NCBI GenBank assembly: GCA_973895155.1 | Contig: OZ316893.1 | Location: 27,414,210 to 27,478,209, forward strand | Direction of reading: 5' to 3' | Source of the DNA: Marsupella aquatica | Lineage: Eukaryota > Plantae > Marchantiophyta | Length of the DNA: 64,000 nucleotides | In this document: one piece after another, positions 1 through 45,900 of the stretch | Numbering within the stretch: position 1 is the first letter of the stretch | Layout: the number at the start of each line of letters is the position of its first letter | Notes under the pieces: model-generated | What the model was told of the DNA's origin: nothing | The model's database searches: none | The model's input: only the letters and a program-made list of their open reading frames with translations | Made by a program: the position numbers and the translations under genes

Positions 1-1778
1 ATCGAAAGGCAATCTGAAATGTAGGGTCATGTTTGGCCATTGAGTCACGAACACCTGGAGTGTAATCAAGCATACATTCCTTACAACAAGCTTCTCGCAC
101 CTCTTTAGTTGACCCCACATTCATTTCCATGAAAATATTGTGACAGGCACAAACTTTGTCAATCGATGTCATGGTTTTACGGTACTCCTGGTCGTAGTTA
201 TGCTGGAAAGCCAGCATCCTGATCTCATGTCTCGTTAGACCAGAGTAAACCCATGCCTCAATCTCACCGTACACTTGCTTTCCATACATTTTGAAAAGTT
301 CAGCCTTTGCACGAGCTCCATGATTACCGCCAATCACTCGATACTTCCATACCCTAGATTTAGTAATGTCCCACTCATGAATTGTGGGACAATCTGTTGG
401 ATCAACTACAACAACAAATGGAGCCGTGAAGTTGGAAGGGTTTTTCATGAGCAACATTTTGATGTTCTCTACATGTAGCCAATCTACAGGTCTAACTAAA
501 GTTGAATTCTCACCCTCATCTTCAAAAATGAGATTATTGACATGCAGAAGCACACTGGTCCTCTAGACTCTGCGTTCAAGCATGAGCTTTGCAAGTTCAG
601 CCTTGATGGCATCTGTCTCAAATGAAGCCAACGGCGTCTCTTCTTCCTCATCTCCCTGAAAAATAACATGGCTTGCAATGAATTTTAAGAAGAATTCAAA
701 ATGCAAACCATTTTCATTATTTCAATGCAATGCGCGATACAAGTATCGCTCCCAACATTCATTTTTGCTAGACAAATAAACTTACCAGGGGAATGCTAAC
801 AACAGCTGAGGTTGGACCTGAGGTAAGGGGTAATCGTTCTTTGGATTGATGCATTGACACAGCTGGAGTGCTTATTGCACCACTTGAATCTGCAGCTAGA
901 GCTACTCCTGTGCCTCCAATCCAACCAGTCCTCTTCTTCTTTGCAAGTGAAGTTGATGGCGATGGAACCTCTGCCTCGACAGGTACCAATTCATCCACAA
1001 CTCCCCTTCCACAACCTCTTCCACGACCACGACCTCGACCACGACCAACACTTGCAGTAGCGCTTGGGCTTGCCTCTACAGATTGAGGTGCTTCACCTAG
1101 AATCACTCTCATGGTAGCTTTTACTTGGGAATTCCCTTTCCCATGTCCCCCGCTCCCACTAGCACAATCAACTCCTTTTGCAACTGAAGATGTGCCACTC
1201 CCGCTAATGGTTGGCTTCCTTACTTTGATCCTTTGTGTGGGTTTAAACTCTTCACCCACGAGTCTCTTATACTCTTTTTGGACAAACGGCAGCATCAAAG
1301 GACTCAAATCATCCACAACATTAGCAACCCACTCAGGCTTGAAGATCTCCATCTCAATTGTACTCGCAACTTCCTTCACAATAGGGTCTTCGGGAAATTT
1401 GTCTAATGTTGAGAGATCATACAAATCCATGTCCACGACAAGGGCCACAAAACCCTTGCTTCTACACATTGTGAGGAAGCTCAATCCAATAGCGATAGAG
1501 TTTTCCTTCCCATGACCCTTCTTAAAGTCACATGCGGCAACCCCAATTACTGGACCAAAGGAGAGTGTAATCTTCTCTGTTTTCTTCACTTGAACCCAAA
1601 GAACGGGTGTCTCCCAGTCAGCTGCTTCCTTGGACAGCATTCGAGTATCCCGAAAGTACCAAGGTCTCCTCACAAACTTTTGTTCATCACAAATATCTTT
1701 TGTCGTCCAAATCACATTACACAAAGTTGTCATGAGGTTCTCGATCTCAACAGACCCTGTCCTTGCACTTCCTTCCAT
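1..1778 (-). pseudogene. 5' part of the element A gene: unknown N-terminal domain plus ParB-like domain (the MTase part would lie outside the window)
   Basis: Exon 1 is 1778-786 (MEGSARTGSVEIENLM...), the GT-AG intron is 785-656, and exon 2 runs from 655 (GDEEEETPLASFETDAIKAE...RPVD...WKYRVIGGNHGARAKAEL...AFQHNYDQEYRK). It is collinear with 38982-40700 and has the same phase-0 intron position. There is an in-frame TAG at about 563-565 and a frameshift near 65. Confidence 0.85.
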
Positions 1779-3691
1779 TGTTTTCCTTTGGCAGATCAAA
1801 TTTGAGATCTACACTGCTTGATCAATCCCACGAGCGATACAAGTATCGCGCTTTGCTTTCTTCTGAATACGGCATCCAAGTTGCTTTCTATTGGGTCCAA
1901 GAACCTTGAGCAGTGGCGTCTGTTGGGAGCTGCTATCGATTCTCATGCGGTTCTAATCCAGCAAGGGTCAAGGCTATCGTTGTCCATCTGCACAATGACA
2001 TGTAGTGCCGGTGAGTCAAATCTGAAGCTCAAGAAGCTCAAAAAATGAAGAATGGCTGACGATACTGGAAATCAATGTAAACTATCAGTTTGATCACTTA
2101 ATCTGCTTCTCAAAACTCAAAATCGCAGAAGAATTGCCAATGCCCGCAGCGATGCAAAAGAGCAACTTACAAAACAATTGGAACAAAAGGAAAGATAGAT
2201 TGACAGACATGACAAGCTGCAACTCCTTCTCTGCCGGTGGTGACTATGATCAACTCACTGTCCTCTCCTTTGTCGCCCTTTGGCTACATCAATTTGAGCG
2301 AGTACTATGTCATGATTGTTATTGTGGGAATGGCCAAATTGACAGCGATGAATTCTAAGTCCTTCAGACTTGCAAGTCTTCCTCCGCTCTTTGGGAATGT
2401 TGCCATTGAGCAGAGAGAGAAGAACGAGAGAACAAGCTTTGCTTTCTTAACAAGCCAACACCTTACAAACCCCCAAGAGGATCCATGAATCCACGATCGG
2501 GCTACAGATACAAGATTGCAGGCTCTAATGGAGTCTCTAGTTTTTGATGTTTTAACTGGGATTACTGAATTCAGCTTAATTCTGAGAACAACATGACTCA
2601 ATCCCAAGAGAGATACAAGCACCGCAATTTGCTTTCAGATTGGGCCAACACTTTCCAATCCATCTGCCGATTCCTCTTTAGATGACAAAACACAAAGACT
2701 CCTACTCGAAGCAATATGACTATCTCATATGTCTTTCACAAGCCACACGGAATGCCTCAAAAACTATTTGTGCAAAACCAACTAAGGGAAATGACTCAAG
2801 AAGCAGACCAAATCCTTTTCACAGTACACACCATGGTTCGCACTGTCTTCATTTGCGCCGCCTCCAGAACTTGTTCTAGTGCTGCCTACAGGGTAAAACT
2901 ATTTCTTTTTGAATCAGCCAGGCCACACCACCTCCTCAATCTCCTCTCTAGCCAAACAATGCTCCTTTCCAAAATCTCTCACACAAGCTCTCACAAAGAC
3001 AAGAAAAAATGGGAAACATTGTATGGGAGAGGATATAGACACGAGGCCGTCACTCTTTGGGCACTCAAAAGATTGTCGAGCCCAACTTTTGCTGGGCACA
3101 TTTTTGCTTGTAAGCGAACGGAACAGAGTATTTGTGTTTGTTTAGGTGGGGTTTTGTCAGGTCCACCTTAGAGGTCACGAGTGACCCAGTCCAATGATCT
3201 TTGCAGCGCAGTCCGTCCTAAATCTACACTACTCAATCCAAAGAGTGATACAAGTATCGCTATTGGCTTTCGGATCCGACCAACAGCTACCCAAGAGAAA
3301 ATAAGGGCCCCAACATAATATGAAGAACTGCGAGATGAGCAGCAAACGGCTTTACAATCTTCAAGAGACAGAATCTAAACCATGATTGAAGTATTTTCAC
3401 TCCTGCACCATGAGACTAATTGAGTTGGCTCAATGCACCAAGCGATACCTGTATTGTTGAGGGTTTGAAACTTAGGTTTGAATGCAACTTACGATACAAG
3501 TATCGCAAGTTGCTCTCTACAAAGCTGATTACGATACGAGTATCACAGTTTGCTTTGGAAAGTGGAAAGCTTACTCTTAAGACCAGAATGCGCATCTGTA
3601 TGGAGAGGAGGTTTTCTTTGGGTTGGGTGAGAGCTTGATTGTGAAAGAGGACTTGAAAAAATGAAACTTCTTTCCATGAGCGGGGCAGTCA

Positions 3692-3759
3692 TATTTATAC
3701 TTTTGGAGGTAGCTATGGTTAATTTCTAGCTTAACCCTAGTTAAACTTAACCATAGTTA
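3692..3759 (-). promoter_or_regulatory. Putative promoter of element A: three TAACC-NN-GGTTA-like palindromes plus a TATA box
   Basis: Motifs at 3710-3721, 3732-3743 and 3748-3759; TATAAATA on the - strand at 3699-3692. The two TATA-proximal motifs and the TATA box have the same spacing as at 35760-35811. Confidence 0.55.
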
Positions 3760-3992
3760 GAGCCTACTGCGCGGTTATGCACAGTTTCACCATTTCTGTA
3801 AATTTCTGATAACCAAAGAATTTACAAATGCAAAGGTCAATACCCGTATCGATCTTTGCATTCCTCCTAATCATGGATGACTATTTTTCTGGAATGCACA
3901 ATTTGTATCGGGTTTTACATGCCTTAGAAAAAAAATTGATCATGAAAAACGAGAAGGGTGGTCACCCTTCTCGATAGGTCCGACATCATGTT

Positions 3993-6900
3993 CTTTCTCC
4001 ACAGCATCCGTAGGAGAGAAAGCCGATGATAACTTGAAATGTGAAGCTAAAGGAATACTCACTGGCTTACAGTTCTCCATGTTGAATCGTGCAAGTACTT
4101 TCCTCGCATACTGGCCTTGACTCAAGCACAACTGTCCAGTCTCAGAGTTCCTAAAAATCTCCATCCCTGAGATCCTCTTGGCCTTACCAAGATCCTTCAT
4201 CCTGAATTCAGCACTCAATTTTGCCTTGAGACAGTCAACCTCAGATTGATCTTTAGCCACAATGAGCATGTCATCCACATAGATCACCAGAATGATGAAA
4301 CCAAATACATCATTCTTGACTGATTTTGTATACACACAAGGATCATACACCATCCTTGTAAAACCTTGAGCAAGCATAAAATCATCAAACCGCTTGTTCC
4401 ACTGTCTGGGAGACTGCTTCAATCCATACAAGGACTTGAGCAATCTGCAAACTAAGTTCTCTTGGCCCTTCTTCATAAAGCCTAGTGGCTGTCTCATGAA
4501 GATCATCTCTTCCAAGTTGCCATAAAGAAAAGCAGTAACAACTCCATTTGATCCATCATCAGACCAAAAAACACAACAAGCTGACACAAGATCCGAATTG
4601 TGGAATACTTAGCCACCGGTGAAAAGACCTCATTGTAATCCACTCCTTTCTCCTGAGTGAATCCTTTGGCAACAAGCCTTGCCTTGTAGATCTTGTCTCC
4701 ACCCTATGAAGGACTATCCTTCAACTTGTAAATCCACTTGCTGTCCACCACTTGCTGAGCTCTTGGAAGCTCCACCAGCTCCCATGTCTTGTTGTCACTC
4801 AAAGATTGCAACTCCCTCTGCATTGCTGTATTCCACTCATGTTTCTGCTCTGAAGCACAAGCCTCACTATACGAAGAAGGCTCTCCTTCTTCCAAGATCA
4901 AAGCCATATCATCTTCATCAGGTGCAATGTCAATATGATCTAGCTTAGATGAGTCTGCCCATTGACCATACCTGGTAGGAGCTCTAGTAGAACGACTGGA
5001 AGTTCTTCTAGTAGATGACTCAGGCTGATCTGTTGTTGTTGCTGGTTGAATTTGAGGTACCCTAGCAACAATTTTCTCCTCTTGTTCCATCATAGGAACC
5101 AGCTCCAAGCCCAGAGCTTCTCCATCTCTCCTTTCATGAACTGCATCATGACTAATCTCCCCCTCAACCCGGTCCGGGATGGGAGATTTCCCCTTGTCAG
5201 TATGGGAGTCCTGAGAACTCTCCCCCTTCTTTGATGATCTGGATTCATTAAAGAACACATCTCTACTAACAATTAGTTTACAGGTTACTGGATCCCATAA
5301 CCTATAACCCTTCACACCTTTCTGATAGCCAAGGAAAATGCACTTCTTCGACTTGGACTCCAGCTTGGATCGAAGCTGGGAAGGTGTAAGCACATAAGCA
5401 TCACATCCAAAAATCCTCAGATGTGAGTAATCTGCTGGACACCCGTACCTCATTTCAAATGGTGTCTTGAATCCAATAGAACTGGATGGAGAAAAATTTA
5501 CCAAATAAGCTACAGTGTTGACAGCTTCAGCCCAAAACTCATGTGGTAAGCATGATTGACTCAAAATACTCCTTGAGCGGTCCAATAGTGTTCGGTTGAG
5601 TCTTTTTGAAACACCATTCTGCTGAGGAGTATAACTTGTTTTGAGATGGCGGGTAATCCCCTGCTCCTTACAATACATTCCAAATTCCCCGGAATTGTAT
5701 TCACCGCCGTTATCCAATCGAAGATATCTCACCTTATTACCAGTCTGATTCTCAACTTGGGCTTTCCACTCCTTAAAAGTGGCAAAAACATCAGACTTAT
5801 TGTGTATAAAGTATATCCACACATACCTTGAGTAATCGTCTATGAACGTGACATAGTATAACCGTCCAGAATGTGAGGGAGTAGGGGCTGGACCCCACAC
5901 ATCACTATGTACATACTCAAGTACCTCCTTGCTGGTGTGAGTTCCAACTCCGAAGGGTTTTTTGTGTTGCTTCCCTAGCACACAGTGCTCATAAAATTCC
6001 AACTTACAAGATTGCAAATTAGAAAGTAATCCTTTCTTCTGAAGAATAACCAAACCTTTTTCACTCATGTGGCCCAAACGGAAGTGCCACAGCCGGGCCG
6101 TCTCCTCATGAGATAAGGTTACATTGGCTTCATCATAGACTACACTGCCCTCCAAAACGTATAGATTGCAATGTCTCTTTTCCTTCAATACAACTTTAGT
6201 ACCATTTGAAACCTGAAGGACACCATTAGCAGAACTCCACTGATGGCCATTTGCCTCTAAAACTCCAAGTGAAATAAGATTTTTCATCATGCTGGGAATA
6301 TGTTTCACATTCCTCAATGTTCTCACAGCACCATCAAACATCTGAAATCTAACAGATCCAAGTCCAACAACTTGACATGGGATTCCATTTCCCATCAACA
6401 CTGACCCGTTGGAAACCGTGTAAGAACTAAAACAATCTCTTCTAAAGCAAATGTGAAAAGTACATGCACTATCTAGAATCCAGTCATCACTACCTGGATT
6501 TGACACTACGTTGAGAGCATAACCTTGACATCACAATATGTCATCATCTTCGAGTAAATCTACCTCATGCGAGCTCGATGTTGCGTTAGCAGAGGACGTA
6601 TGGACCTTTACTCGACAATCCCTTTTCATGTGGCCTGGCTTGCCACAATTCCAACATGCAAGAGGCTTCCTCTCTTGCAATTTCCCTCTGGATTTAGATC
6701 TCCCCCATGATGTAGATCTAAACCTGTTCTGCCCATTTGTGCACTGCGTTGCTCTTCCCCTGTTCACATTGAGCGCAGTGCCAGAAGAAGATGCTGTCTG
6801 TGATTGACCCAACTTCTTCTGAGCATCATCAGACAACAAGGAGCTCACCACCTCATTATACGAAATGGACTTCAGATCTCTGTACAAGAGCACCTGTTTC

Positions 6901-7391
6901 AAGCCCTGATATGACGGCGGTAAGGAGCTTAGCAGAAGCAAGGCCTTATCCTCATCTTCAACTCCTTTTCCCAGGTTTGACAGATCCACCGCTAGACTGT
7001 CAAAATCATCCAGGTGATCCTGCATCTTGCTCCCTTCCTTGAGCCTGAGGCTCATCAAGAGAGACTTCTTGTATTGCCGGTCTGACGCATCTTCCCGGTA
7101 GTACTTCTCTCTTAGACCCTTGAACAGTGACGCGCAATTCGCATAATCATCCAGCTGCTTGATGATGTGCGGCTTGAGATATAGCATCACTGCATTGACA
7201 ACAATCACCTACTCCTGTCTCCACTGTCTCACAAAATCTCCTCCTCTCCATCATACTGCTCTCACGATGAAAGCAGATGAGCTAAGCCCATGGCCCGTAG
7301 AACACCCTTCACTTGTTTCTCCCGCAGCAAGTAGTTAGTACGACCATCGTACTTCTCCACCTCAAACTTCACTCCTCCAAATCTAGCCATC
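3993..7391 (-). pseudogene. Copia gag-pol polyprotein with stops and frameshifts
   Basis: Gag start region MARFGGVKFEVEKYDG; zinc knuckle CWNCGKPGHMKRDC; protease WILDSACTFH; GAG-pre-integrase LWHFRLGHMS; integrase VHSDVWGP/DDYSR/DNGGEY/PQQNG; RT KSLYGLKQSPRQW and YVDDML. The sequence is split across ORFs 7262-7456, 6531-7208, 4704-6506 and 3940-4587. Confidence 0.93.
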
Positions 7392-9292
7392 TCCCTCTTC
7401 TTTCCCACTACCGACAGCTCTGGTAGTAACACAACTGCCTCCACTGCACGCTGCACCGGTGATCATACCGGTGTCACTAGTTCTTCCTCAAACGGTAGCA
7501 GCTCCTCCTCAGACTCTTCGTCTGACCGTCGCGATCCTGAAGCTCCACCAATGCCAATTCTTCCAGTATCCTCCGAGTCACTCATATGAAACAATCACGA
7601 AAAAACGTCATTTTTTGAAACTTCTCATAAAACTCAAAACTCAACACCACCGCGTAGCCCACGAAGCTAGGAGTCCAATACTGAAAGCCAAAATCAAAAT
7701 CAAAATTCGACAGAAAAGTTATTCAAATTTTGGTCGGGGTGGGTAAAACCTTGGGAAACTCCCCCGTTTTGACCACCTCGGAGAATAACCGAAATACCAA
7801 GTATAACCCGTCGTCGGAATCACGATGGTGCGCCGCGTTGCTAACTCTAGTGGCAACGTCCTCACCAAAAAAGAACAAAAAAAGTTACCGTTCGGCGGAC
7901 GAAATCTTTGACGGATGGCCAAAAAACAGCTTTCTGTTTTTTGGGAATATTCCCGCACAGTACAGCAAGTCTCATAGGGGGCCGTTCCTCCTGTCGGAGC
8001 GGTTAAAACGGAGGGTCACAGGGCCCGGGACAGCCAATAGAAGAGCCGGCAAGAAAAAGACAAAAAATGGCCCTAAAGGGGTGCAAAGCACCCTAAATCC
8101 AAAAAATACGAGTATAAAAAGGTGCATCCGCGTCGCATAGGCAACGCGAGGCGTGCCAGGGGGTGTACAGGGCGTCGAGGTGGGGGCCGGGAGTAAAAAT
8201 ATGGCTGCGTACGCAGCCGCGTACAGAGTATGGCCGGACCAGGGAGAACGCCGAGCACAAGAGGGCGAGGTGATCAGTTGCCTTCGGCAGCGCTCAGCCG
8301 CTGCGCGACTGCAGGCAGTTAGACGGCAGGGGATAAAGGCAGGGTCGCGCCAGGCAGGGGTTAGGGGGTGGGGCGAGCGACGGCAGGGCGAGGTGCGGGG
8401 CTTGGAAGCGGGCCGGAAGAGGGCTAGCCAGGGCGCGCGCCGGCCGGCGCTGCGGACCCAGCCAGAAAAATTGGGGTGCGTAGCGGGGAGGGGGGGGGCG
8501 CGGTAAAAAGACGGGGCCGAGAGGAGGTATGAGGTGTGTGTATACACACCTTGTGTGTGTATACACACACCAAGTGACCCCCTTAAAGCCAAAATTAGAC
8601 GCTAAAGCAAGAAATGTCAAGTACTCAACTTAGCAACCGCCGTTTTAAACAAGAAAACAACGAGTTACCGACGGGAAATGTTGCCGAATCACACCGGCGC
8701 CATCTGCAACTCTAGCACTGTAAAAACTTCCGCCGCGTTGCCTTCACTCCGCGTCAAGTGCCAATCCCGGGCTCAAAATGACCGCCTCGCCGTGATCAAA
8801 CCGTTGAGCCGTAGCACTTCGCGTCTCTTCCACCAAGTCGGACGTCACAAAGAGAAACCCGCTTCAGATGTGAACAAGCTCCATAGCTTGTGAAAAAACC
8901 TGAACGCCTCCGTCACTCGTCACGTCTCACTCGGTAACAACTCGGCAACTATCCAGCTACCGAAACGACCAGCTCGCTTCAACCTTCAACTTGAGCTATA
9001 ATGTGCGACCCCTCCCGCACTACACAGCTCACACCGTTGAAAAACGCAAACTTTGGTCTCTCCCCCGAAAACCCGTTGAACACGAATAAAACCCTGAACG
9101 ACGCAAACTTCAATTCCTCCGCACCACGGATACCGATCAGCAAGTTCTAACCACTGTTAGAAAGCCTTCTCACTAACCTATCCGCTCAGTCACACACATT
9201 CAAGTTTCATGCGACGAAACTCCGAATGTACCATCGACAATGAACGCTGGAAAAACCTGTCACGAAAAAAAAACTCGTCACCTCCCAGGCAT

Positions 9293-9304
9293 GCTCTGAT
9301 ACCA
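9293..9304 (-). other. Primer-binding site (tRNA-iMet)
   Basis: TGGTATCAGAGC on the - strand, 2 nt from the LTR end. Confidence 0.9.
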
Positions 9305-9306
9305 CT

Positions 9307-9649
9307 TGTTGAGCATAGACGAATTCGTAACGGCAAGCCCATGAACCATCCAACGCACAATAGTCGACACAGAGAGATACGTGATTCACCTCCACATGAG
9401 GCTACGTCCACGGGAACACACAAGAGCTTTACTGCACTCTAGGCCGACCGGCCATACCAAGCATCCACAGCACAAGCTCTCCCTATCTCTCAACTAGCTC
9501 CATAACAATGAGCCTAAGTTCCACCAGGGTCTAGCATCAGCCCTGGCTATATGCACACCAGCACTACCGCTAACATTAGCTAAGTCCTAACCAGAGTTAG
9601 ACTAACTGTGGTTAGCTCATGAGTCACAAGACTAGAGCAATATCTAACA
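9307..9649 (-). repeat. Copia 5' LTR (343 bp)
   Basis: TGTTGAG...TCTAACA termini, adjacent primer-binding site, and near identity to the split solo LTR at 35274-47971. Confidence 0.93.
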
Positions 9650-19385: not shown

Positions 19386-20203
19386 CAAAGAAATGCGTGA
19401 CTTAAGGTGGAGTTAGCTTTAAAAGAGGTTAGTGGCCATATATAAAGGGATTATTTTCAACAACTCTTTCAGCCTTGCCAGTACACTATGGCCCCCCAAT
19501 ATGATTTGGTGATTCAAGTGCTGCCAACTTATGTAAAGCCATTTGTAGGTTCCTTGTCTAGTGTGGTATCATCCTTGGACAGCTGTTTAGGGATATCTCA
19601 CCACAAGTCCAACATCCTGACTCTTGTTTTAAATTAGGAGAGCATAGGTCTTTGACTAATAGATTCTTGTGCTATGGGCTTCTCCCCTTTGGATATATGT
19701 ATGTACATTAGTTGCAATGTTGGTGTAGATGCAACCTTTGGTGAGCCTAGCTTCCTTGGCAAATCCGGAAGTCAACACCTACTCATTCACCATGTTGAGC
19801 TTAGAAAATGCAAAAACAAGAACGAATGTCACGGGATTTGAATCCTCAATAAAGTGACATCTCTCACTCTACGTTACAACTCACTATCCAAAATTGCATA
19901 CCATGCATGCAAAACTGAATTGTTTTGGGCCCCAGTCACTCCCTTGGTGACCATAATCAATCTTTGCATATGAGTGACTGTATGCTTCGTGTAGACTCTC
20001 TCCAATTAATCTCACACTGTAAATCCTTAAGACCCTTCAACTTATATGTTCTCACACCCTGGTAGTTTTACTTTAATACATCAAACAACTTCACCACAGG
20101 GTAACACTTGGCAAAACCCCATTTCACCTAGCCACAATTGCACCGGTAGGAGTAGCGGTGGCCCGAGCAGCTCGCTGAGTAGTGGATGCTAATGAAGTGC
20201 CAC

Positions 20204-32932: not shown

Positions 32933-35737
32933 AATTCCGTCACCTCGAGCACATTCGATATCAAGAACCTGCTGCTGCCGAAATTCAACCTAATACCTTT
33001 CCAACTGCTCGCAGTTCGTCCTCAAATCCGCGATGTGATAATCTCGCCTTTCGTTTGGAGAGTCTCCACTATTCCAACTCCCGACTTGCCGTGCCTCACC
33101 TCACCTCACCTCACCTCGCCTCGCCTTGCTTGCCGATCCACCTAATGATCTCCTTCAGTAGAGCGGAATGTTCCTCCACAAATGGAACCCTAATATCGAA
33201 TTCAGACCAAGCACAGACGGGAAAAAGCAGTGACCGATGCCGACCTGATGAATCTTTCCGCGAGAAGAGAAACCGCAACCCTTGCAACCGAAGTTTGCGA
33301 TGCAACAACGACGAAAAAGTGGTGGTATCAGCTCACCCACCTCCCGAACAGCCTTGCCTTGCTTCGCGCCTCGCCTCGCCTCGCTTGCCGACCTGGTGGA
33401 TATTCACAGGAAAGCTTGAAATCAAAGTTTGCAACGCCACAAAGCTACATGAGAATTGGAGCCCAGGAATTGCGTGACTGTCTTGTAACAACACGTCACC
33501 GTGTGGAAACGGAAACGGAAACGGACGAAGTTTACACACGAAAAATCAGCCTCTTTACTAACTAGTAAGGGTGCTACCAAAGCAAACTAGAGGGCTCCTT
33601 AATTTCTTGTCTAAAGTTAGACTCTACACCATGAATCTTTTGAAATAATGGTGGCCTTGCAAGCGGATGGGGGGACACTGCCTTATATTCGTAAATATTT
33701 TTGTGATTTTTCTCTTTGTATATTTGAGTGCATTAATTCTCCATAATGCACCCCTTGTTTTGAGAAGGCCATGATACAAAGCACCATAAATATAGTAAAA
33801 GTAAAAATTAAATATAGTTTTACCATACAATAATAATAAATAAAATTTAGTCAAAACTTCAAGATGATAACCAAATCTTATATGGTGATACTAAAAAAAT
33901 ATCTATGAATAGAATCTAATATAACTAAAGAATGCATATTTTTGGCCAATTCCATAGCAACCACTTCTTAGATGACTCTTTAATTTGAATTTTTTATTTC
34001 AAGGATTCACTTTTTCTTGTTTGTTACCAAAAAGTCACTCAAGTTTTTACGTACATTAATGTCCTAGTTACGGGTATTATGAAAATAATGCCCTCATTTT
34101 TCAAGGCATTATATCCCACAATGCACTCTAACCAGGACATTATACTATTCATATTACCTTGTAATGAGTGAAACTCCTGCCATTACCTTTATGTATATGT
34201 TTATGGTCATTCCTTCTTCCTTAATGAGGTATTGGGAGAGACAGTATGCCGACCTGCAGGACCGGGGAGGTGTAAGCAAGCCCCCATATCTCATTAAGGA
34301 GGAACAGGGGAACCCTAAATGTACATTAAAGGTAGGGGGCTTTTGAAAACTGGAATCGGCTATTGAAAGAATACACTTGCTAGCCTGTGTGTTCATCTTG
34401 GCCCTTCATTCAGCATTGAATGGGACCACCCAGATCAGGAAGTGGCCGGCACGAGCTTCCGACGTGCCTCCTTCCGCTGCTGTACCCGCGGCCAATCTTG
34501 GCCCTTCGTTCAGGATCTCCCTTCTCGAGGCAGATCCTGGCCCTCCATTCGGGATTGCTTTTCATGATGCCAATCCCGTGGCCAAATCTGGGTCGTCCAT
34601 AGGGCTGCTCTACCCGCGGCCAATCTGGGCCGTCCATTTAGGGCGTTCAATCTGCGGCTAATCTTTGCCCTCCATTTAAAAATGAACGGCCCAGATTTTG
34701 TTTACAGGGCCAGTGGATTCCAGGGCAGGCGTTACTTAGTTTGGGAGAGCAGCAGGATGCGGCCACTTCCCATTTCACTTTCATGAAACGCCATCAAGCT
34801 GGAAGTTTGCGCAGGAGCCATTTTCGTCTCAACCGGATGAGCTTTTTTCTCGCATTGTAGCCTTTCTCCTTCGTGCTCATCGAGAGCTTCAGTTGAGTGG
34901 ATTCACTCCCCTTTGTGAATTGTAGTCGTTCCGTGTTCATTGAGAGCTTGAGTGGATTTGGGACGACTGGCTGTGGTGATTTGGGTGCAGCTGCGAGCTG
35001 CATATCCGGCTGCAAGTTGCAATTCCGGCTGCGAGTTGCATAAAGTGGCCTGGTATAGAGAGGTATAGTACTCTTTGGGTGAAAAGTAAGTACATTAACT
35101 TGGATTTACAAGTACTGTACCTTGTAGGTACAATAGTTTGTGGTTGGAAGCGAAGTAGGTTAACTTGACATACCTTTCTAATTTTAGGCTCTATGTTGAG
35201 GGGCTCTCTATTTAGATAGGGGCTCTCTATTTAGATAAGGACTCTCTGTTTAGGTGACACCTATTGACCTATCTGTTGAGCATAGACGACATTCGCAACG
35301 GCAAGCCCATGAACCATCCAACGCACAAGAGTCGACATAGAGAGATACGTGGTTCACCTCCACATGAGGCTACGTCCACGGGAACACACAAGAACTTTAC
35401 TGCACTCTAGGCCGACAGGCCATACCAAGCATCCACAGCACAAGCTCTCCCTATCTCTCAACTAGCTCCGTAAAAATGAGCCTAAGTTCCACCAGGGTCT
35501 AACACGATTTTGGACTGACCGAGAATCGTTTAGCCCGATTCCATAATATTTTTTTCTAAGGCAATGCAATCTCTGATAAAACTGCCGAAAAGTCAAAAAA
35601 ACATGAGTTGCCTACATTGTATCGCCGCGGGAATGCAGGGAGCGATACGTGCATCGGGTTTTACATTCGGTCTGTGAAAAAGTCCGAACTGCGAGTAACT
35701 TGGTCCACAACCACGTAATCGAGGGTCGACCACGCAC

Positions 35738-35811
35738 TAACCCGGGTTAAGGCGGAAAGTAACCATGGTTAAGGGGGAAAGTTACCATGGTTAGAGCATC
35801 CCCTATATAAA
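35738..35811 (+). promoter_or_regulatory. Putative promoter of element B cargo: three TAACC-NN-GGTTA palindromes plus a TATA box
   Basis: TAACCCGGGTTA at 35738, TAACCATGGTTA at 35760, TTACCATGGTTA at 35782 and TATATAAA at 35804; the layout is mirrored in element A. Confidence 0.55.
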
Positions 35812-36109
35812 GAGGAGCGGGCTGCCCATAAAAAGTTTATTTTCGCCGGAGCAAACAACACCTCACTCAGAGTGAATACTGAACTCCTATCAAGTCTTGC
35901 ATTCCTCCCAAGAGACTTGACTCTTTCTCCAGAGAACCCGATAAATTTATCGGAACTACCATTCCAGTCGAGTATCATCCATGTAAGGTTGACTTGTCAT
36001 TTGGTGTCAATGTCCTGATCCGAGAGGACTGCGATAAATTTATCGCATTCTGCATTCCTCTGTTGCATTCCTTTGATCCAGTGCGCACTCATTCCATAAA
36101 TTATATTCA

Positions 36110-36310
36110 AGGTCCGATAAATTTATCGGAGTATCCATTCTTGTGATTGATTGAAGATTGCTTAGTTGAGACTCCGATAAATTTATCGGAGTATCCATTC
36201 CTGTGATTGATTGAAGATTGCTTGAGACTCCGATAAATTTATCGGAGTTTCCATTCCTGTGATTGATTGAAGATTGCTTGAGACTCCGATAAATTTATCG
36301 GAGTTCCCAT
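36110..36310. repeat. Tandem array (56-60-bp unit, about 3.5 copies), each unit carrying the palindrome CCGATAAATTTATCGG
   Basis: Palindrome cores at 36115, 36175, 36231 and 36287, separated by AGT.TCCATTC.TGTGATTGATTGAAGATTGCTTGAGACT. Confidence 0.95.
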
Positions 36311-36518
36311 TGAGGGAGTCATGTCTTCAAGTGTGTGAGGGAGTCATGTCTTCAAGATGAATGCGAGGTGCGATAAAGTTATCGCACCCTCCTGTGAGAC
36401 TCATCTTCCTATGTTTTGTTTGGAGACTCATCTTCCTCTATGATGTCGCAGTGCTGCAGGGTTTAGGAGGCACAACGAAAGGTCGATTGCACTTGGTGGA
36501 TCAAAGGTATAGTGACAA

Positions 36519-37002
36519 ATGGCTGTCTTAATTCAAAATCATGTCAAACGTGCACGCCGGTTGTACAAGAAACTCGTGCAACGTAAAGTTCTCCCCATTG
36601 GTGTAGGAGCATTGTGGATGGGTGGTACTCATCCCGGAGATAGGCAGAATCCTCTTTGGATTGAGTTCTGCGGAATGAATGGTGCAGGAGTTCCAATCCG
36701 TTCGAGGTTGATGTTAACGGCGTGTCTCCATTCTTTGGAGTTTTCTTGTAACTATTGTTGTCGTCGTCTTGACAACAAGTACCATAAATTGGCATACTTA
36801 TGTTGTCAGATTTGGAACAAGGACCCTTGGGTCAACCTTTCATGATGAGTGTTGCGACCTTCACATTGAGGCACGTTTTGTAAGGACACATTTAAGTAAA
36901 CAAGTCCTACTCATGTGCAGCGAATACAATATGGTCCGAGTCCTAATCTATAAACTGTCGTGCAGGGTTGGTACTGTGGATATCTTTGGTTACACCTGGT
37001 GA
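36519..37002 (+). pseudogene. Orphan Cys-rich cargo ORF(s) of element B
   Basis: A 108-aa ATG ORF with CNYCC/LCC, possibly continuing by frameshift into 36769-37002. No family recognised. Confidence 0.35.
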
Positions 37003-37042
37003 TTGAAAGTACTTTTATTGGTGGTTTTGGTAGCTCTGCTTC

Positions 37043-37453
37043 ATGGCTGCGTCGGAGAACCTAATCGTTGCTAAGATGGCATCCGTATTAGCCCACAAGC
37101 GTAGGAAATATATTCAAGGAAAAGTGCCTAGTGTGGAATGCGGAAGTCTGTTGAATGGACTTCCTGATCAACTCGTTGAATCTCACATTTGGCCTCTCTT
37201 GGCGTTGTCTTGCACACAAGATGAACACCTTGGCCTTGACCTAAAACTTTTACCCGAAGAACGACTGGCTCGAATGAGAACAATCATTTGTCTTGGAGCC
37301 ACCTCGAAGAAATGGAACCATCTTGTTGTTGGTACACAATTTTGGGCTTTACTAAAATATGCAGTCCGTGAGATTAATGACATAAACCAAATGCTCGCAA
37401 GCATTCCTAATGCCGACCTTCTCTCAAACCTACATATTGCTAGGGTCTTCTGA
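37043..37453 (+). CDS. F-box-like cargo protein
   Basis: LLNGLPDQLVESHIWPLL...IICLGATSKKWNHLV matches the plant F-box pattern (LxxLPxxL...L..VSKxW..LV) with an insertion. Confidence 0.55.
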   Translation: MAASENLIVAKMASVLAHKRRKYIQGKVPSVECGSLLNGLPDQLVESHIWPLLALSCTQDEHLGLDLKLLPEERLARMRTIICLGATSKKWNHLVVGTQFWALLKYAVREINDINQMLASIPNADLLSNLHIARVF

Positions 37454-37920
37454 GAGGAAACTCATTTCCTCACTCCCATAGATATGCTTGGGTGCTTCTT
37501 GTATGACCGATTAGATGCGTTTCTTAGAGTTTGGGTGAATCTTGGAGAAAGCGGGAAGCGGACAATTCTTGCATGGCATGGACAAGTCTGAGTGGATGAG
37601 GCATTGCTGCGAACATCCGATAAATTTATCGCACTCCTCATTCCTCTGGTCGATTTAGTAATCAATTGTTTTGGGTGCTCTAAGGTTTGCTCGAGAAGAG
37701 CTTGTAAAAAAACACTTGAATGTAAATGACCCTGCCTCGCCTGACTTTGGGTTGTGTGGTCCAGAGTGTAGTTTTTTGCGCCTCTACGGATGATTAGCTC
37801 ACAAGTGCATTGGCTTCACAGCCTGTTATACAAGGTACTATAAAGTTGAATGAAACTTGTAGAATTGTAATGAGTATGTTCTCCAAAATGTATTCCTGAT
37901 TTCTATTTGCTGATCAGGTC

Positions 37921-38643
37921 ATGCTTTAGCGACGCATTTTTGTACCCTTCGTGGATCCTCCAGAATGGGGGAATGGCGCCCTGATGGACCAGCTAAGGAA
38001 GCTGGATGAATCACTAATTTTAAAGATTTTCAAGCTGGTAGCAAAACCATTTTATAATAACGCATATCACTTCTACGTAGACTAGGTAGGGGGAGAAATT
38101 TATATCCGGTGGGATAGATATGCTGCATTTTCTAGAAGTATTATCTTGCTTTTTCTTAAAACCGGTGCAGTAAAACGTTTTATATTGCATTGCTATCATG
38201 TTGTGAAGGGCAATCCTGCCTATGAACCAGAATTCTATGCCCACAACAGACATAGAGCATTCGATGAGATTCGGGATGTGATTGACCAGCTGGACAATCC
38301 TCTTGCTACCGAGTTTTTGATTGACACTGGTGGGAAGTTATATTCGTACAGGACTCGTCAACTCCCCCCTAGGCCTCTTTGTCCGTTATTTAGGTTAACT
38401 TATGTATCTTGTTTATGGACAAATGTCCTTGACAATGGTGAGATGTGTCAGTGTTGCACAAATGCCTGTTGTGACGTTTTGTCACGCCGTTATTCAGTAG
38501 CTGTAGTTAATCCTGAGACCGGTGCCACAAATTTTCATTGGCTGTGGGCCTATGATCATAGGATCACTCATATACCCCAATGGCCCAAGAAGCTAATCTC
38601 TCGCTTTGCTGTAGCGCGGTTTGATCTTGGGTGGGATGATTGA
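37921..38643 (+). pseudogene. Orphan cargo ORF, Cys-rich C-terminal part, possible second F-box-like start
   Basis: The open frame 38146-38643 contains CQCCTNACC. An upstream disrupted frame from ATG 37921 contains LRKLDESLILKIFKLV. Confidence 0.4.
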
Positions 38644-38981
38644 TTAGGCACATTATCACATGTACACTCGGTCATCAATTTAAAGAAGGCTCACTTTTTG
38701 TTTGGACCACTTTTGCGATAATTTTATCGGTGTTGGTCTCATTTTCAGATGTTGACACGTACAATAATGTAATCTCGGCCGTCAATTTATATCGTGCTCA
38801 TATTTGTTTGCGATAATTTTATCGGAGTTGGTATCGCTCGTGGAATGACCTAATGCTTGTACGTGAATGAGGACTTTCTGAGTTCATTGTATCGATGTTT
38901 GCATGCCGGTTTTTGGTTCTTGGGTTTGTCAAAGCGATAAATTTATCGCTCCTTGCATTCAAATTTGCAAACTTTGTCATC

Positions 38982-41900
38982 ATGGGTCCTAGTGGGAAGA
39001 GTGGATCTGCCGAGGCTGAAAGTCTCATGACAAGCCTCACGAACGCGATTTGGACAAGCGAAGACATTTGTGAAGAGGTCAAGTTCACCAAGAAACCGTG
39101 GTACTTCCGCGACGCCAGGTTACAATCCAAGGATATGGCAAACTGTGAGTCTCCTATCCTTTGGGTCCAGATGCAAAAATCCGCAAAGGTTACTCTCTCG
39201 TTTGGCCCCATTGTTGGTGTGGCGATCTGTGAGTACTTGATTAACCGGGGAGAGGCAAAAGTGTTGAAAGAGGGTCTGAGTCTCTTGACAATGTGTGGAG
39301 GCAAGGGATTCACCTCTGTCATTGTCACCATGGAGAACTTTCTTGAGAAATCCCTTGAGAGTTACCCTGAAGATGCGCTTGTCGCGGAAGTTAGGTTAGC
39401 AAAAGTAATGAATCTTATGGGCCCAACTTGGGTGTGCCAGTTTGTCCAAGATTGTGATCTCATCATGCTACCAAGGGTGAACGCAGAGTACAAGAGGCTC
39501 ACAGGTGAAGAATTCAGACCCATCCGGAAAATAGTTATTAAGAGGCCTGGTTCTAACGGCAGTGGATCTTCATCGGCAAAAAGCGCTGGAGGTACGGCTT
39601 TGGACGAGCCCAAAAGTGGTTCGGGGAAGGGAAGTGGCAGGGGAAAGGGAGAGGGAGAGGGAACATCAGGGAAGATGTTGCTGGTCCCTCCAAGGGCGGG
39701 AGAAGGGGCAGCGGCAATCATCAAGGTCGTGCAACCGGTGCAAGTTTAGGCGTTTCGGAAGCGCCTTACATAAATGTAAGCGAGAGTAGAGGATCTGAGG
39801 GATCGGGGCCATCTGGTTCTGGAGTCAGCGTTAAGAGAAAGAGAACAGGTTGGAGTTTATCCACAGCCCCGGAAGGAGTGGAAGCCCTGATCGATATGGA
39901 GCCTCCGGTGCTTGATGAGCGTTTGCCTCGTTCAGATATACAAGCTGAGGTTCGATCGGTAAGTGCTACCAAACTTTGATTTTCTATTGATGAAAGAGGA
40001 TTCCGATAAAAATCTCACTGTTTCTTTCGTAATCTAATTTCAAACGGCATTTTCTAGATTGATGAAGAGGAGGAGACTGCTCTTTCGATGTATGAGACTG
40101 ACGCCATCAAAGCAGAGCTCAGTCTGCTGATGCAGCGAAGGGTTCAAAGGACAACTGTCCTCTTGCATGTCGACAATTTAATTTTTGATGAAGCTGGAGA
40201 GAAGTCAACTTTGATCAGACCAGTGGACAAATTGCATGTGGAGAATATCAAGATTCTTCTAAGGAAAAACCCCACTAACTTCAGCGCACCGTTTGTGCTG
40301 TGTGTGGATCCGAAGGATTGTCCCACAATTGAGGATTGGGACATTCTAAAGTCCAGAGTATGGAAGTATAGAATTATTGGAGGAAATCATGGTGCTCGGG
40401 CAAAGGCCGAGTTGTATAAAATGTATGGGAAGTAGATTTATGGTGAGCTCAAAGCTTGGGTATACGCAGGACTTACCAAGTCGGAGGTCCGGAAGTTGGG
40501 CTTCTAGCACAATTATGACCAGGAGTATAGGAAGAACATGACTTATATCGATAGAGTTCGTGCGTGCCACAATATCTTTGTTGAAATGGATGTAGGATCA
40601 AACAAGGATGTTCGCAAAGCTTGTTGTCAGGAATGTATGCTGCAATACACTCCCGGTGTTCGTGATAGCATGGCCAAACATGACCCAACATTCCAGATTG
40701 CTTTTCAAACGGGTGAAATTTGGGATCTTCAGGAGAAAGTTTTCCAGATGTGGGAGAAGGGGACTGTCTTGGGACAACCCAAAAAGATCATGGCAACAAC
40801 AAATGCAAAGGGAAAGGTTAAACCTTTAACGCTGAAAGAGATTAAAATGAATAAACTTGCAGGTGACCTCAATTTAAATACTTTTTGAGGTCTTCAAGGA
40901 CAGTCAACTAAGGAGCATGTTAAGCGGCTCTTGAATAGGGTCATTGGGAAAGTGATCACCTTGGATCAAATGCACAAGGAAGGGGAAAAACTGAAAAAAC
41001 TTTCCAAGGTGAAGAAATTATTCTTGCAGATATCTGGGCAGCCCGACTGGGCAACGTGCAGAGAAATGTTTCCAAATGAGACGGATGTTTCCGTCCTGGG
41101 AACATGGGCAGAGAAGTTGAGCAAAGCGGTAAGCACCCGTCTCTCCCCGAGATTTTTATCGGCCTTGCCATTCCATTAGTAGATTTTTGCATTCCTCGTT
41201 CCATTCAAAAATCATCGCAAGATTTTTATCGGCCTTGCCATTCCATTAGTACATTTTTGCATAACTCGTTATATTCCCGAGATTTTTAACAGCTTTCGTA
41301 TTCGTTAAGTGATTTCATTCTGATTGGAATTCTGTGCGACCTTTGTTACAGCTGAAGATTGGGTCGAAGCGGAAAAATAAAGTTGTTCCGCCTGTGCAAT
41401 ATAATTCGGCAGGGGAGGTTATTGTTCCCTCCGCTGACATCCCGTATGTGTTCAAGAATTTTGTGCTTGCTGCAATTGATCGGTACAACCGGCTCCAGGC
41501 GCTAGGCGAGGACGCACGAGAAGCCGCGGAGCAAATATGGAAAAATGCTGACGGAGATTCTTTCTCTTACTATCTCCATGTTGGGGATGTTCAAATTTTG
41601 GATTCTTTTGTGGAGGCAAAACCTTACACTCTTGCCGTCGCCGACATTCCGTATGGTTTTAATGCGCCTGGTTCGGAGTTTGATGAAGTGTCCTTCACGG
41701 AAAAGGACGTTGTAGATATGGTGAGAAGTTTTTCAAACATGACAGCTTCGAAGCAGTGGAGGTTTGTTGTGATCCATTCATTACAACAAACAAATATGGT
41801 CATGTCTACGCTTGAGATTGTGTGCAACTGTGGGGTTGAGTCTGGAATTTGGGAGAAGACCAACATTCATGAGCGTCCCGTCGGTGCTCGATTGGCGTGG

Positions 41901-42456
41901 GGTTTTGAAAACTGGTTGATGGGATTCTACAACGAGGAAGGCATCCGGAACATGAACATGTACAATTTCCAACCGGATGAGCTCGCATCAATATCATCAA
42001 GGTTCCATGTGTAACCAAAAAGTTTGTTGATCCGTTGGGCTATGTTGTGAACCCGTACCAAAAGCCTGTTGGTTTGGGTGCTTGGTTCGTTACTCATTTC
42101 TCGGAAAAAATGATTGGGTTATGAATCTTTGCTGCGGAACCGGATCCATGTTAGCTGCAGCTCTTCTCAATTCTCGCCAGGGTTGTGCGGTCGATAAAAG
42201 TGCTGCATAGATTGATTTTGTGAGACATCGGATTATGACTCTAGAGTCAAACTGGAATTTATATGATGAAGCACAGATTGAAGGGCAAGGCGACGAAGGT
42301 TTAGATATTCAACCACCAATTGGAGGCCAATTGGGAACATTGGGGACTTTCACTTTCACTGTTGAAGTCGTGAAGGAGGTCGAGAATGAAGAAGAAGCCG
42401 AAGAACCTCCCAGAATGCCTAATGAGGATGATCTCAATGACATGTTACTGGATTAG
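38982..42456 (+). pseudogene. Three-exon fusion gene: unknown N-terminal domain, ParB/Srx-like domain, and beta-class N6-adenine/N4-cytosine DNA methyltransferase
   Basis: Exons are 38982-39958, 40058-41128 and 41352-42456 (GT-AG, phase 0). ParB-like motifs: RPVD..HVENIK..L, APFVLCV, YRIIGGNHGARA (GGNH at 40379-40390), AWVYAGLT.SEVRKLG..HN. MTase motifs in beta order: LHVGDV, DIPY (41643-41654), IWEK, NPYQKP (42050-42067), WVMNLCCGTGS (42130-42147), AVD. There are several TAG/TGA stops and about 3 frameshifts. Confidence 0.88.
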
Positions 42457-42903
42457 GAAATTGTTATCTGGTTGTATGATAGTTAGGTTAGTTTAGGTTA
42501 TGTTAGATTATGTCAGTCCCACTTCTCAATATTCGGAGAATGGAGTGTGATAAATTTATCGCAATTACGTTTGAACCTGATAAATTTATCGGACATTACA
42601 TTCTACTCCCTTGTTTGTCACGGTGTTCTAGCTGGGGACTTATCGGACTTTGCATTCCACGCTCTAGCTATTCCACTCCCTTATTTGTCACGATGTTCTA
42701 GCTGGGGGAATGGAGTTGTCGATAATATTATTGGACTTTGCATTCCACGCTCTAGCTAGTTAGTCATTACAATCAATTCAAAAAAAGATATAATTATAGC
42801 TTCGGAGAACAACATACTTAGTCCCAGATGTTCACGACTGCGACCATCCTCATGGGAATGATAACCAGCTTAACGATAACCATTATAACTTAAAACCTTT
42901 ACA

Positions 42904-45900
42904 CTAGCTTCTACTATCAACGACTATAGTGTCCATCATTGCATTTTGAATGATTCGTCTTGTTTGTACAGGGAGAGTACTATTTGCCAATAACGCAAAG
43001 TTATACGCATAAACTGCAATTTCTGCTAGGGACAGTCTCGGGGGTCTCACTATATGGGGACCTCCCCATCGCCTGCGACGTTTTTAGGCCTCGGACTCCC
43101 TAAAATGTAAGAAAAAAATTATTTTTTAACCCCTATAAAGTTGGAATATTCTTGGAATATTCTAAAAATTGGATTAAAAAGACCCTAATATTCTTATAAG
43201 TCTCAAAATTGAATTTAAAAGACCCTATTGTTCTTCTACAAAAATTCTTAAGTTTTCCCTTAGAACCAATAAAATAACCCTATCCTTCGTCGCACGTGAT
43301 ATGCCATTTTTGTGGAAGTGAAACCCCCGAGGGGACAGTTCATCCTCCAGTACTTTGTTAGATGAAGCCTCTTTCTCCAGATAATATCTGCCTTCAATTG
43401 CAGACTCCTCTTCTGAATCCATTGCATACCAAGTGATTTTAATTCGCTCGGGGATGTCGTTAATTTTTGTGAGAATCTCAGTCACTTTTGCCATCCAGAA
43501 TGGTCTTCCCTTTGGATCTTGATGGGCTGCTACACATATCATTGCAAATTTAGTATTCACCTCTAGATCCTTGAAGTCTCCAATTTCCATGACTTTTCTT
43601 CGACTTCCGGAATACATGACTGTCCTCACACCCGCTATTTTATCAACCAAGATAGGTTCCATTGCTGCTTCCGTAGGATTGGTCGTAGGTTCTCTTTGTA
43701 CGTTTACTTTGGTCCAACTCCAATCAAAACTCCATTGTGCAGGTTTCAGGTGGTGCTGAATCACTTATTTTTGTTTGTCAAAAAACCGACCCCACCATAG
43801 CCGATCTTCGTCGTCAAAGTAATTGAATCCATCTTCAATTGCTCTTCGATACTTTTGAAGAGTCAAAAAATGATTTTACGCCGCTCGCTCGTCTTGTTCC
43901 TCAGTATCATTCTCTTGATCATCATTGTCTCCTGTCGCTCCCGTGGCCGACTTCAATGCCATTTGTGGTGCGACCCACATTCCAGATGAAGGAATGTACC
44001 AAACAAATTCCACGGGCTCCCCCCAATCTGTTGTCGTGGAAAGATGTTTGGCATCGAAGACAGACCGAGCACTCCCATCTTCGAGTACTCTGGTAATCCG
44101 AAATTGTTTCTAAGCACTTATGCCGTGGAGAGTATGCAAAACTTGACCATCCATATCCTTATCATTTGCTTGATCCTTGTCAGACACAAATTTTTTGAAA
44201 TCGGCAACCTCATCGACAAAAAATATTTTTTCCGTAGGATTGTAGGATTCCTCTATGATTGCGGAAAGAGTGTCCAATCGAAAAGCTTTTTGCTTGTTCA
44301 ATTTTGAAGAAAACTTGCTAAACATTTGATCAATTTGGTCATGGGTGTGCCCAACCAATAGAAAACCAACCTTTATTTTTGGAAAACACCTATCTCCACC
44401 AACATGTTCAAATATGCCATAAGATATTTATTCTTGTTTTCCCGAGCAGTGTTATCAAGCTGGAGGTAAAGCACTGGAGGGAGTGGACCTTCCTAGGTAT
44501 TCAGAATATGCTGAATAACGTGGATGGTCAGGTTGCTATCATTGTGAATATTTGGATAGTTCAAAAAAACATTTGAACTCAATTGTTTGTTGAAGATCAA
44601 ACAACCCACTACATGTACAGGGATGAAATACTTCTCATCCATATTCTTTGGACACCGAATGAAATGAGGTAACTTTGTCTTCTTTTGATCCATTCCATCA
44701 ATACAGATGCCCAAATATTTCTCCGGACTCTTGTAACATTTGCTCCGGTGCTTTGCTAACTTCTTCCTCTCCACTGCTTGTGCCTTTCGATGTTCGTTTA
44801 GCAATGTTGAGAATTTTCCTACAATAATAAAAACGTTTAGAACTTTGCTGGCCTGACAACGATAAATTTATCGGGTTCAGTATTCAAACACTTGATTTGA
44901 TAACCATAATGTTAAACCGTGACAGCGATAAATTTATCGGGATAAGTATTCAAACAATATATTAACACATTACCAAAGAAGAAGCATGGGAATACTCAAC
45001 CCGATAAAATTATCGGGGATAAGTATTCAAACTGTTCAAACGATATATTCACACACATTACCAAAGAAGAAGCATGGGAATACTCAACCCGATATAATTC
45101 TCGGGAGTAACACACGGGTTTAGAAACTTACTCTTTTCTGCTTCGAGTGTTGCCTTATCACGAAGTGCTTTGAATTCAGTACACGGGGCGCAGGTGGAGA
45201 AACAACTCCTTTTGGGGATGCGCACGCGAGGAAACTCCTTGTTCCAAATGTGAACAAACCACGAATATGTCACGCCTTGTTCTTGGCGCATTAGAGTTTC
45301 AGACTGGAAGGCGTCAAAAACTTCTATTTTTGTCCAATTGTCAGGTAAATGAAAGATATCCTTGTTGGGGAGACTCTCTACATTTGTGGTAAAAAAATCA
45401 TCCAGCCACTGAACAAGACCAAGATGTGCGGTTGATTTTTCTCTACAAAATGTATTGATCTGTATCCGAGAAAACATGTTCTTCGAGATTTTTTGGAGAT
45501 GATTATTTCCTAGGGAAAATAATTTCTTAAAACCACTCCGACAAAAGGATCTACCGCTAACTGAGTAACCACTTGCACCGGCATGCCCACCCTTCACACA
45601 TCCTCTTAGAAGTACGTTCTTCTCTTGGTAGGATAGCCCATAGTAATATGTGCGTTGTTTCGTCACATCCTGCAGACCCAAATTCCCTAGACAAAAATTG
45701 TCACAACATGGATACTTATAAATTTCTTTCATTTTGTTTCTATTCAATTTATCATTTATCACATTGTCTTTCCTAGTAATTCGGTCTCTATCTTTTTTAC
45801 TAGGCTCATTTGACTTCTCTATAGACTGAAATCCGATGAGAACATTGGCATTTTCCTCTCCTTCAAGTACCTCGCGAATAGATGCATCACTCTCTGCTGA

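Follow-up and report, generated by a model that had tools for sequence, protein, structure and literature searches.

We analysed a 64,000-nucleotide (nt) stretch of the liverwort Marsupella aquatica (assembly GCA_973895155.1, contig OZ316893.1, positions 27,414,210 to 27,478,209 of the forward strand; hereafter the window), in which two DNA transposons, element A and element B, each carry a gene for a predicted ParB-fold/methylase protein (ParB-methylase) together with copies of a short palindrome. A first-pass annotation had proposed that each element uses its own version of the palindrome, and that binding site and cognate protein have co-diverged. Element A is represented by the 3,992 bp that lie inside the window, its remainder lying beyond the window edge. 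The features of the two elements are given below, with C6 and A6 denoting the base at position 6 of the palindrome's half-site.

1..3992, minus strand: element A, left part of a DNA transposon; its end resembles that of B, with terminus AACATGATG at 3992
1..655, minus: A ParB-methylase exon 2, ParB N-terminal domain and helix-turn-helix as far as the predicted recognition helix; one in-frame stop
656..785, minus: A intron 1 (GTAAG..TTTCAG, 130 nt), with site 735
723..760: 38-bp site, core CGATACAAGTATCG at 735-748
786..1778, minus: A ParB-methylase exon 1, 46% tblastx identity to B exon 1; ATG placed
1823..1860: 38-bp site, core 1835-1848; ends 56 nt ahead of the start codon
2611..2624: decayed core with three arm mismatches and conserved flanks
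3246..3545: four sites (3246, 3443, 3492, 3532) that follow a TATA-like box (3692-3699)
3838..3851: subterminal site; G at 3839 in the contigs of all four runs gives a full CGATAC arm
35501..47852: element B, complete DNA transposon of 12,352 bp with ends AACACGATTT..AAATCGTGTT and a 4-bp target duplication, GTCT
35643..35656: B site of C6 type, left end
35939..36384: B array of seven A6-type sites behind a TATA-like box
37034..38643, plus: B cargo open reading frames (ORFs) between sites, one F-box-like (37034-37453) and one without assigned family (38086-38643)
38982..42456, plus: B ParB-methylase gene with three exons (38982-39958, 40058-41128, 41352-42456)
42922..46860, minus: B DUF7869 DDE-type transposase gene, 5' limit approximate, interrupted by a miniature inverted-repeat transposable element (MITE) at 43036-43332

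The palindrome and its distribution in the two elements

The palindrome coordinates of the first-pass annotation held in element A: CGATACAAGTATCG is found exactly at 735, 1835 and 3492, and variants with one arm mismatch each lie at 3246, 3443, 3532 and 3838. The copy at 2611 (AGATACAAGCACCG) has three arm mismatches, and its flanks are 82% alike to those of the 3246 copy over 55 nt. Site 735 had been placed in an intron of the ParB gene, and the GT..AG intron at 656-785 confirms this. The contig over this site in run X1 has three differences, all of them outside the site, and site 735 is therefore not private to this copy.

A search for CGATA-N4-TATCG with at most one mismatch returned 31 matches in the window against 0.71 expected and a maximum of 3 across 100 shuffles. 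All 31 lie inside the two elements, seven in A and 24 in B, with none elsewhere in the window. Reading the site instead as 16 bp, with CGATAC arms around a 4-nt gap, gave no matches. The motif of the first-pass annotation is the 14-bp core of a longer site, which is 38 bp (AAT-N8-CGA-N8-TCG-N8-ATT). The outer AAT sits exactly 11 nt beyond the core on one or both sides; this is the commonest offset in all six elements compared here (A, B and four relatives described below), and at the A cores 8 of the 12 AAT occurrences within 20 nt are found at it.

Half-site position 6 is C on both sides in 7/7 A sites. In B, 18 of 24 sites have A on both sides, 12 have an exact AATT centre, and three are of the C type: those at 35643 and 47523 are subterminal at the left and right end, respectively, and that at 46465 likely lies within the transposase coding sequence. 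As had been noted, the AATT form is present in none of the seven A sites; the description of B as dominated by AATT needs correcting, since the exact form makes up half of its sites (12 of 24) and three are C..G sites like those of A. The contrast between A and B at position 6 gives a Fisher p of 4.6e-5, a value inflated by the clustering of the sites, since B's 24 fall into nine clusters and A's seven into four. The central two bases are variable in A (on the element strand TT in four sites, and GG, TC and AG in one each), with only position 6 fixed. The sites of A and B thus differ consistently at half-site position 6 alone, and not by a 4-bp spacer code. The picture of shared arms around a variable central 4 bp has to be given up, because the arms differ in other relatives and the central two bases are loose. 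CpG/CHG ratios (A 0.52, B 0.81, rest of the window 0.53-0.64) gave no indication of protection near the sites.

The position of the sites relative to the genes is recurrent. A site lies 5-85 nt ahead of the ATG in five of the five elements holding that region, a TATA-like box is followed by a site cluster in A, B and the relative L001, and further sites recur between convergent gene ends and in introns, four of them in the B transposase intron at about 44821-45130.

Related elements and the predicted ParB-methylase

A metagenome scan identified five related contigs (L001-L005), four of which carry the same scaffold with a core of their own: CGAGAC-NN-GTCTCG in L001 and L003, CGAGACGGGTATCG in L005 and CGATCCAAACATCG in L002. 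The fifth, L004 (1,086 bp, with one ~100-nt intron), has no site and is omitted from the six-element motif counts. When the inner eight bases are ignored, the scaffold occurs 4 times in A, 18 in B, 15 in L001, 19 in L002, 7 in L003 and 2 in L005. The Markov means are no higher than 0.13, and the remaining 47.7 kb of the window contain no copy. The earlier claim of a homogenised version per subfamily is borne out by these four relatives, each with its own core, and element-specific versions are therefore general. Two viral contigs, L006 and L007, were excluded from the counts as chance matches to the word GGNHGARA in an unrelated ORF (L006 inspected).

Across the elements the variable half-site positions are 4, 5 and 6, and drift at position 7 is seen in A and L001. 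A, L001, L003, L005 and the ends of B have C6 in common. Since A's form is also found in three relatives and at B's own ends, B looks like the innovator; its A6 is probably the derived state and C6 looks ancestral, although the base of the tree leaves the order unsettled. L002 and L003 include the transposase end. Other subfamilies, at 80-90% identity, are present in the runs that also gave contigs over A. A His/Pro difference in the predicted recognition helix (DH versus DP) follows arm position 4 (G versus T), separating L001 and L003 from A, B and L002, a pattern of five elements confounded by descent.

More distant protein relatives are found in Chara, Riccia, Ginkgo, a hemichordate, a sea anemone and an amoebozoan (ten looked up, seven with species), and several of them also carry the methylase domain. 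Scanning prokaryote genomes with the ParB exon returned nothing, as did scanning viral contigs with the transposase; a search for longer methylase relatives returned none, which is weak evidence.

In the ParB-methylase of A, exon 1 encodes a domain of no known family and a low-complexity linker, with no Pfam family above cut-off, and exon 2 likewise has no Pfam match above cut-off. A structure was predicted for the intact exon of L002. The model, built from 68 sequences (predicted local distance difference test, pLDDT, 86; predicted template modelling score, pTM, 0.77), replaced an earlier one from 17 sequences (pLDDT 64). A Foldseek search with it gave E 1.2e-5, the top 11 rows being all ParB or Noc. 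The predicted N-terminal domain matches the ParB/Srx fold (7bm8, Z 11.0, root-mean-square deviation (rmsd) 2.3, 98 residues aligned), and the model aligns with KorB (Z 10.5, rmsd 4.2, 200 aligned, collinear across both domains) and with the Caulobacter ParB-parS structure 6t1f (Z 9.1, rmsd 5.4, 186 aligned), remaining collinear with both to residue ~315-322. The earlier assignment as a ParB protein is thus upheld in the form of a predicted ParB N-terminal and DNA-binding fold.

The cytidine triphosphate (CTP) motifs GxxRxxA and EN(I/L)QRE, as defined in the available text of PMC11229316, are degenerate: GNHGARA is invariant in 17/17 close relatives, and HN[IY]DQEY (HNIDQEY) replaces ENxQRE. 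A CTP-driven sliding clamp is doubtful because of this degeneracy, and lack of sliding would explain why almost all non-coding gaps need a site. A scan of 23 window ORFs, a subset of the total, turned up no ParA. Exon 3 matches Pfam N6_N4_Mtase above cut-off in L001 (33.8 bits) and L002 (33.6 bits, cut-off 26.7); the broken methylase ORF of B has no Pfam match. Motif IV (DVPY, 103-105) precedes motif I (the S-adenosylmethionine motif DLCCGTG, 264-266). A DxPY motif points to N6-methyladenine (6mA), a rule that is not decisive.

The B gene is decayed by stops and frameshifts. The in-frame stops of the two ParB genes (565, 40433, 40505 and 40886) are TAG or TGA where relatives have Gln or Arg, as would be expected if methylated cytosines in CHG and CG contexts had decayed in these copies. 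By language-model features, P0191 (L002:1900-2976) is nearest to fungal DUF3723 clusters (score 0.96, 177/256 features); for this likeness of the ParB exon Pfam gave no confirmation. DUF3723 is a recurrent accessory gene of Starships, and may be a ParB-like self-recognition protein.

Residue 201, position 6 and the putative reader of the sites

The 14-bp palindromes parS and NBS (the site of Noc) differ at half-site positions 1 and 6, and Arg201 selects C6, according to the available text of PMC7383237. When our sites are aligned with these centre to centre, the difference between A and B falls on position 6. In the HMMER alignment the family motif GDxNx-G-H-W-R is paired with GTLSMGHGR of Spo0J, which makes residue 274 of B the equivalent of 201. 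This residue is Asn in B (Asn-Thr at the equivalents of 201/202, 40877-40882), Arg in P0004 and P0022, as in Noc, His in P0003, P0005 and P0006, and Gly in most others. In A, the window edge cuts exon 2 ahead of the residue-201 helix. Over the part available it is 77% identical to B and 91/90% identical to P0004/P0022; A groups with these Arg-bearing proteins (support 97/97, 90-91% identity), and a run contig extending A past the window matches them for 10 residues. Among the seven proteins of the A/B group, residue 275 has five states and residue 274 three, while their neighbours are invariant; of 142 columns, just two have as many as five states. A and B have identical predicted recognition helices, in keeping with the CGATA arms that they share.

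The proposed co-divergence of site and protein is therefore retained in part: position 6 is the base read by ParB/Noc residue 201, and B has another residue at the aligned position than A's nearest relatives, but the 4-bp code is lost. The reader of the sites appears to be a ParB-family protein, and since the recognition rules of such proteins are known at atomic resolution, the claim of co-evolution reduces to one residue and one base.

The explanation we favour, for which we put the chances at about even, is that the palindromes are parS-like sites of the transposon's own ParB-methylase, that the version of the site changes with the DNA-reading residues, and that the subfamilies act mainly on their own copies. 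A dimer of the ParB-methylase would bind the 14-bp core, its helix-turn-helix, the same in A and B, reading the CGATA arms common to both. Position 6 would be recognised by the counterpart of ParB residue 201, which is Arg where the A clade has C and Asn where B has A. A second surface would recognise the outer AAT, unless this is itself the target of methylation. Tethered in this way, the enzyme would deposit 6mA or N4-methylcytosine (4mC) on its own element, and this mark could keep the element expressed against host silencing by 5-methylcytosine; the ParB-methylase may also regulate its own promoter. Anti-silencing or autoregulation would then be the purpose of the ParB-methylase, as we infer solely by analogy with comparable systems.

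Several results weigh against this explanation. The DNA-binding domain alone matches weakly (6s6h, Z 4.0), Pfam HTH_ParB stays under its cut-off (20 versus 22.6 bits, E 8e-4), and the sequence alignment with Spo0J is weak (E 0.12-0.24). Arg at residue 201 of A is predicted from relatives of 90-91% identity that are known here from protein alone. L001 and L003 have Gly at this residue yet C6 in 30/30 and 13/14 half-sites, and C6 therefore needs no Arg. The comparison of motif with protein phylogeny that the first-pass annotation had called for gave no significant correlation between motif distance and protein distance (Mantel tests; spacer rho 0.16, p=175/720; arms rho 0.43, p=60/720; six elements, no more than 140 aligned columns). 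Tandem duplication accounts for many of the copies, which are thus not independent. B retains its three C-type sites, and a site linked to its gene would diverge along with it in the absence of any selection.

Much of this would suit a ParB-methylase that binds only the invariant scaffold (CGA, TCG and the outer AAT), the inner bases being neutral and spread by tandem duplication or gene conversion, so that A and B cross-bind freely. The shared recognition helix, the C6 of the Gly-201 relatives, the tandem arrays, the tolerance of B for both site types and the Mantel results all speak for such neutrality. We nevertheless consider it unlikely, if a serious competitor, because equivalent non-tandem sites (pre-ATG and intronic) differ between A and B in unrelated flanks, the switch takes two transversions, one per half-site, position 7 drifts whereas position 6 stays fixed, and few residues of the domain vary as much as the one that faces position 6. 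A role of the transposase, binding the sites for synapsis or transcriptional control with the ParB-methylase as unrelated cargo, seems to us distinctly improbable. Sites do lie close to the two ends of B as well as within the transposase intron, L002 and L003 carry the transposase too, and transposases can regulate their own copies sequence-specifically (bioRxiv 10.64898/2026.08.24.746577, available text). The majority of sites, however, are internal, the ParB gene is always preceded by one, and a 14-bp palindrome fits the footprint of the encoded ParB fold. The ends moreover have a different repeat: CGAGAA stands at nt 20 of all three ends seen (35520, 47814-47833 and 3950-3973), with an 11-bp inverted pair in A, and is a candidate transposase site distinct from the palindrome. 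Its 11 occurrences across B make it weak as a separate transposase site, a further point to be set against the explanation we favour.

That the sites are not targets of an element-encoded protein at all, but hairpins or cruciforms, cassette-joining sites or host-factor sites, is very improbable. Complementarity of the 6-nt linkers within a copy exceeds that of shuffled partners in A (p=0.014) and L001 (p=0.001), as a hairpin would have it, but there is no such excess in B, L002, L003 or L005. In B and L002 most sites have a single outer arm (17/24 and 19/22, respectively), the L002 core contains a fixed non-pairing position, the AAT spacing is rigid, and an Rfam scan of 1-48000 found no match. 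The sites of B bracket its cargo ORFs, which would suit cassette joining. A host factor would not switch its site with every element, a point against that version.

Element ends, surroundings and known systems

The end of A was placed at 3992 from its likeness to B. Contigs of runs X1 and X2 end at the same position, with a jump in depth in the following bin, in agreement with this placement; they come from two studies, one of which is possibly the window's own source. B ends in 10-bp perfect terminal inverted repeats. Element A is inserted in the reverse transcriptase (RT) gene of a Copia element:

3993..9649, minus strand: Copia retrotransposon hit by A, with Pfam gag, integrase and RVT_2

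The long terminal repeat (LTR) of this Copia element (9307-9649) has a tRNA-Met-type primer site, and an empty-site comparison (9500-9570) showed that B is inserted in another copy of the same LTR and is flanked by the GTCT duplication. Both elements (3992; 35497-47856) thus lie within members of a single Copia family of very high abundance, A inside the RT gene and B inside an LTR copy, which may reflect target preference or mere abundance. TAACCATGGTTA-like repeats followed by the TATA-like box lie ~300 nt from the left end (A 3692-3760, B 35721-35812, L001 1-40). Cargo ORFs stand between sites 5' of the ParB gene and differ by element (36400-38900 in B, 1850-3250 in A, 130-560 in L005). Between different elements tblastx finds no likeness of these ORFs, L001 has no cargo, and the F-box-like ORF of B is under cut-off (E 0.047). 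The layout is cassette-like. A MITE-like family of ~300 bp has five copies (20178-20522, 20673-20970, 22444-22727, 43036-43332 and 48094-48433), none containing the palindrome. Pfam domains of the window include Copia, VPS28 and a kinase, and its host genes include an FkbM-type methyltransferase ORF (24851-25870) and a VPS28 ORF (32291-32989).

Self-recognition by transposons is known from VANC and TnpA, for which there is little structural understanding of the protein-DNA code. Should the methylase be active, the elements described here would bring to plant DNA a source of 6mA or 4mC carried by transposons and would offer a natural set of orthogonal, site-tethered DNA writers. More speculatively, and with rather less confidence than in the sites themselves being parS-like, a captured bacterial ParB/parS system joined to an amino-methylase might serve each subfamily as a private epigenetic writer of 6mA or 4mC with its own parS variant, having re-evolved the parS-to-NBS switch at residue 201 and base 6; the same strategy might be found in the charophyte, liverwort, Ginkgo and animal relatives, and possibly in Starship DUF3723. 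In the literature covered, with supplements, subscription journals and Repbase Reports outside it, we found no account of a transposon ParB-methylase with cognate palindromes.

The elements may be Sola-like. Sola elements have a 4-bp target duplication and short terminal inverted repeats, and our elements share with them short terminal repeats, a 4-bp duplication and a DDE-type transposase, B having GTCT and 10-bp perfect ends. In the Sola literature, its defining paper being outside coverage, no description of ParB-methylase cargo or internal palindromes was found. Sola1 is listed for Physcomitrella in a review table (PMC9033089, available part).

ParB-linked amino-methylases of eukaryotes and phages, as presented in the accessible part of PMC4738411, also combine ParB and N6/N4 methylase domains, and a bacterial or phage ancestry of the ParB-methylase is likely. 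Unlike the ParB-HTH fusion described there (group-2 Dam-type; chlorophytes and chytrids), our protein has motif IV before motif I; it resides in a cut-and-paste transposon with putative cognate sites, a setting that the accessible text does not describe. With ParB/parS and Noc/NBS (PMC7383237, in the text available) the present system shares a predicted two-domain fold, a 14-bp palindromic core and several sites per replicon, and here too a different base at position 6 of the half-site goes together with a different residue at the position aligned to 201. The form and number of parS sites, a 14-16-bp palindrome in several copies, are found in these elements, and the sites would be cognate to the ParB-methylase. 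It differs from ParB/parS in being a eukaryotic transposon gene with introns, fused to a methylase, with degenerate CTP motifs, a basic insert of ~30 residues within its DNA-binding domain and, in the site, an additional AAT that stands 11 nt beyond the core.

Similar to VANC/VANDAL of Arabidopsis (PMC5735166, available text), a transposon-encoded accessory protein goes together with a family-specific short motif in intronic, intergenic and terminal non-coding DNA, often tandemly amplified. VANDAL elements are Mutator-type, whereas ours have a DUF7869 transposase and a 4-bp duplication; the protein is unrelated, with a predicted ParB fold and a modifying enzyme domain of its own, and the site is a bipartite palindrome rather than a 9-nt asymmetric word. 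In the En/Spm TnpA system, too, family-specific motifs have been proposed to co-diversify with a transposon regulator (bioRxiv 10.64898/2026.08.24.746577, in the part available). There, TnpA is transposase-derived, binds the termini and uses host glycosylases, whereas here the sites are element-wide and the protein is ParB-like. Our best reading overall is a ParB/parS-derived self-recognition system, functionally VANC- or TnpA-like but assembled from different parts: it works like VANC/TnpA, is built like ParB/parS and, by the features compared, is a member of neither family.

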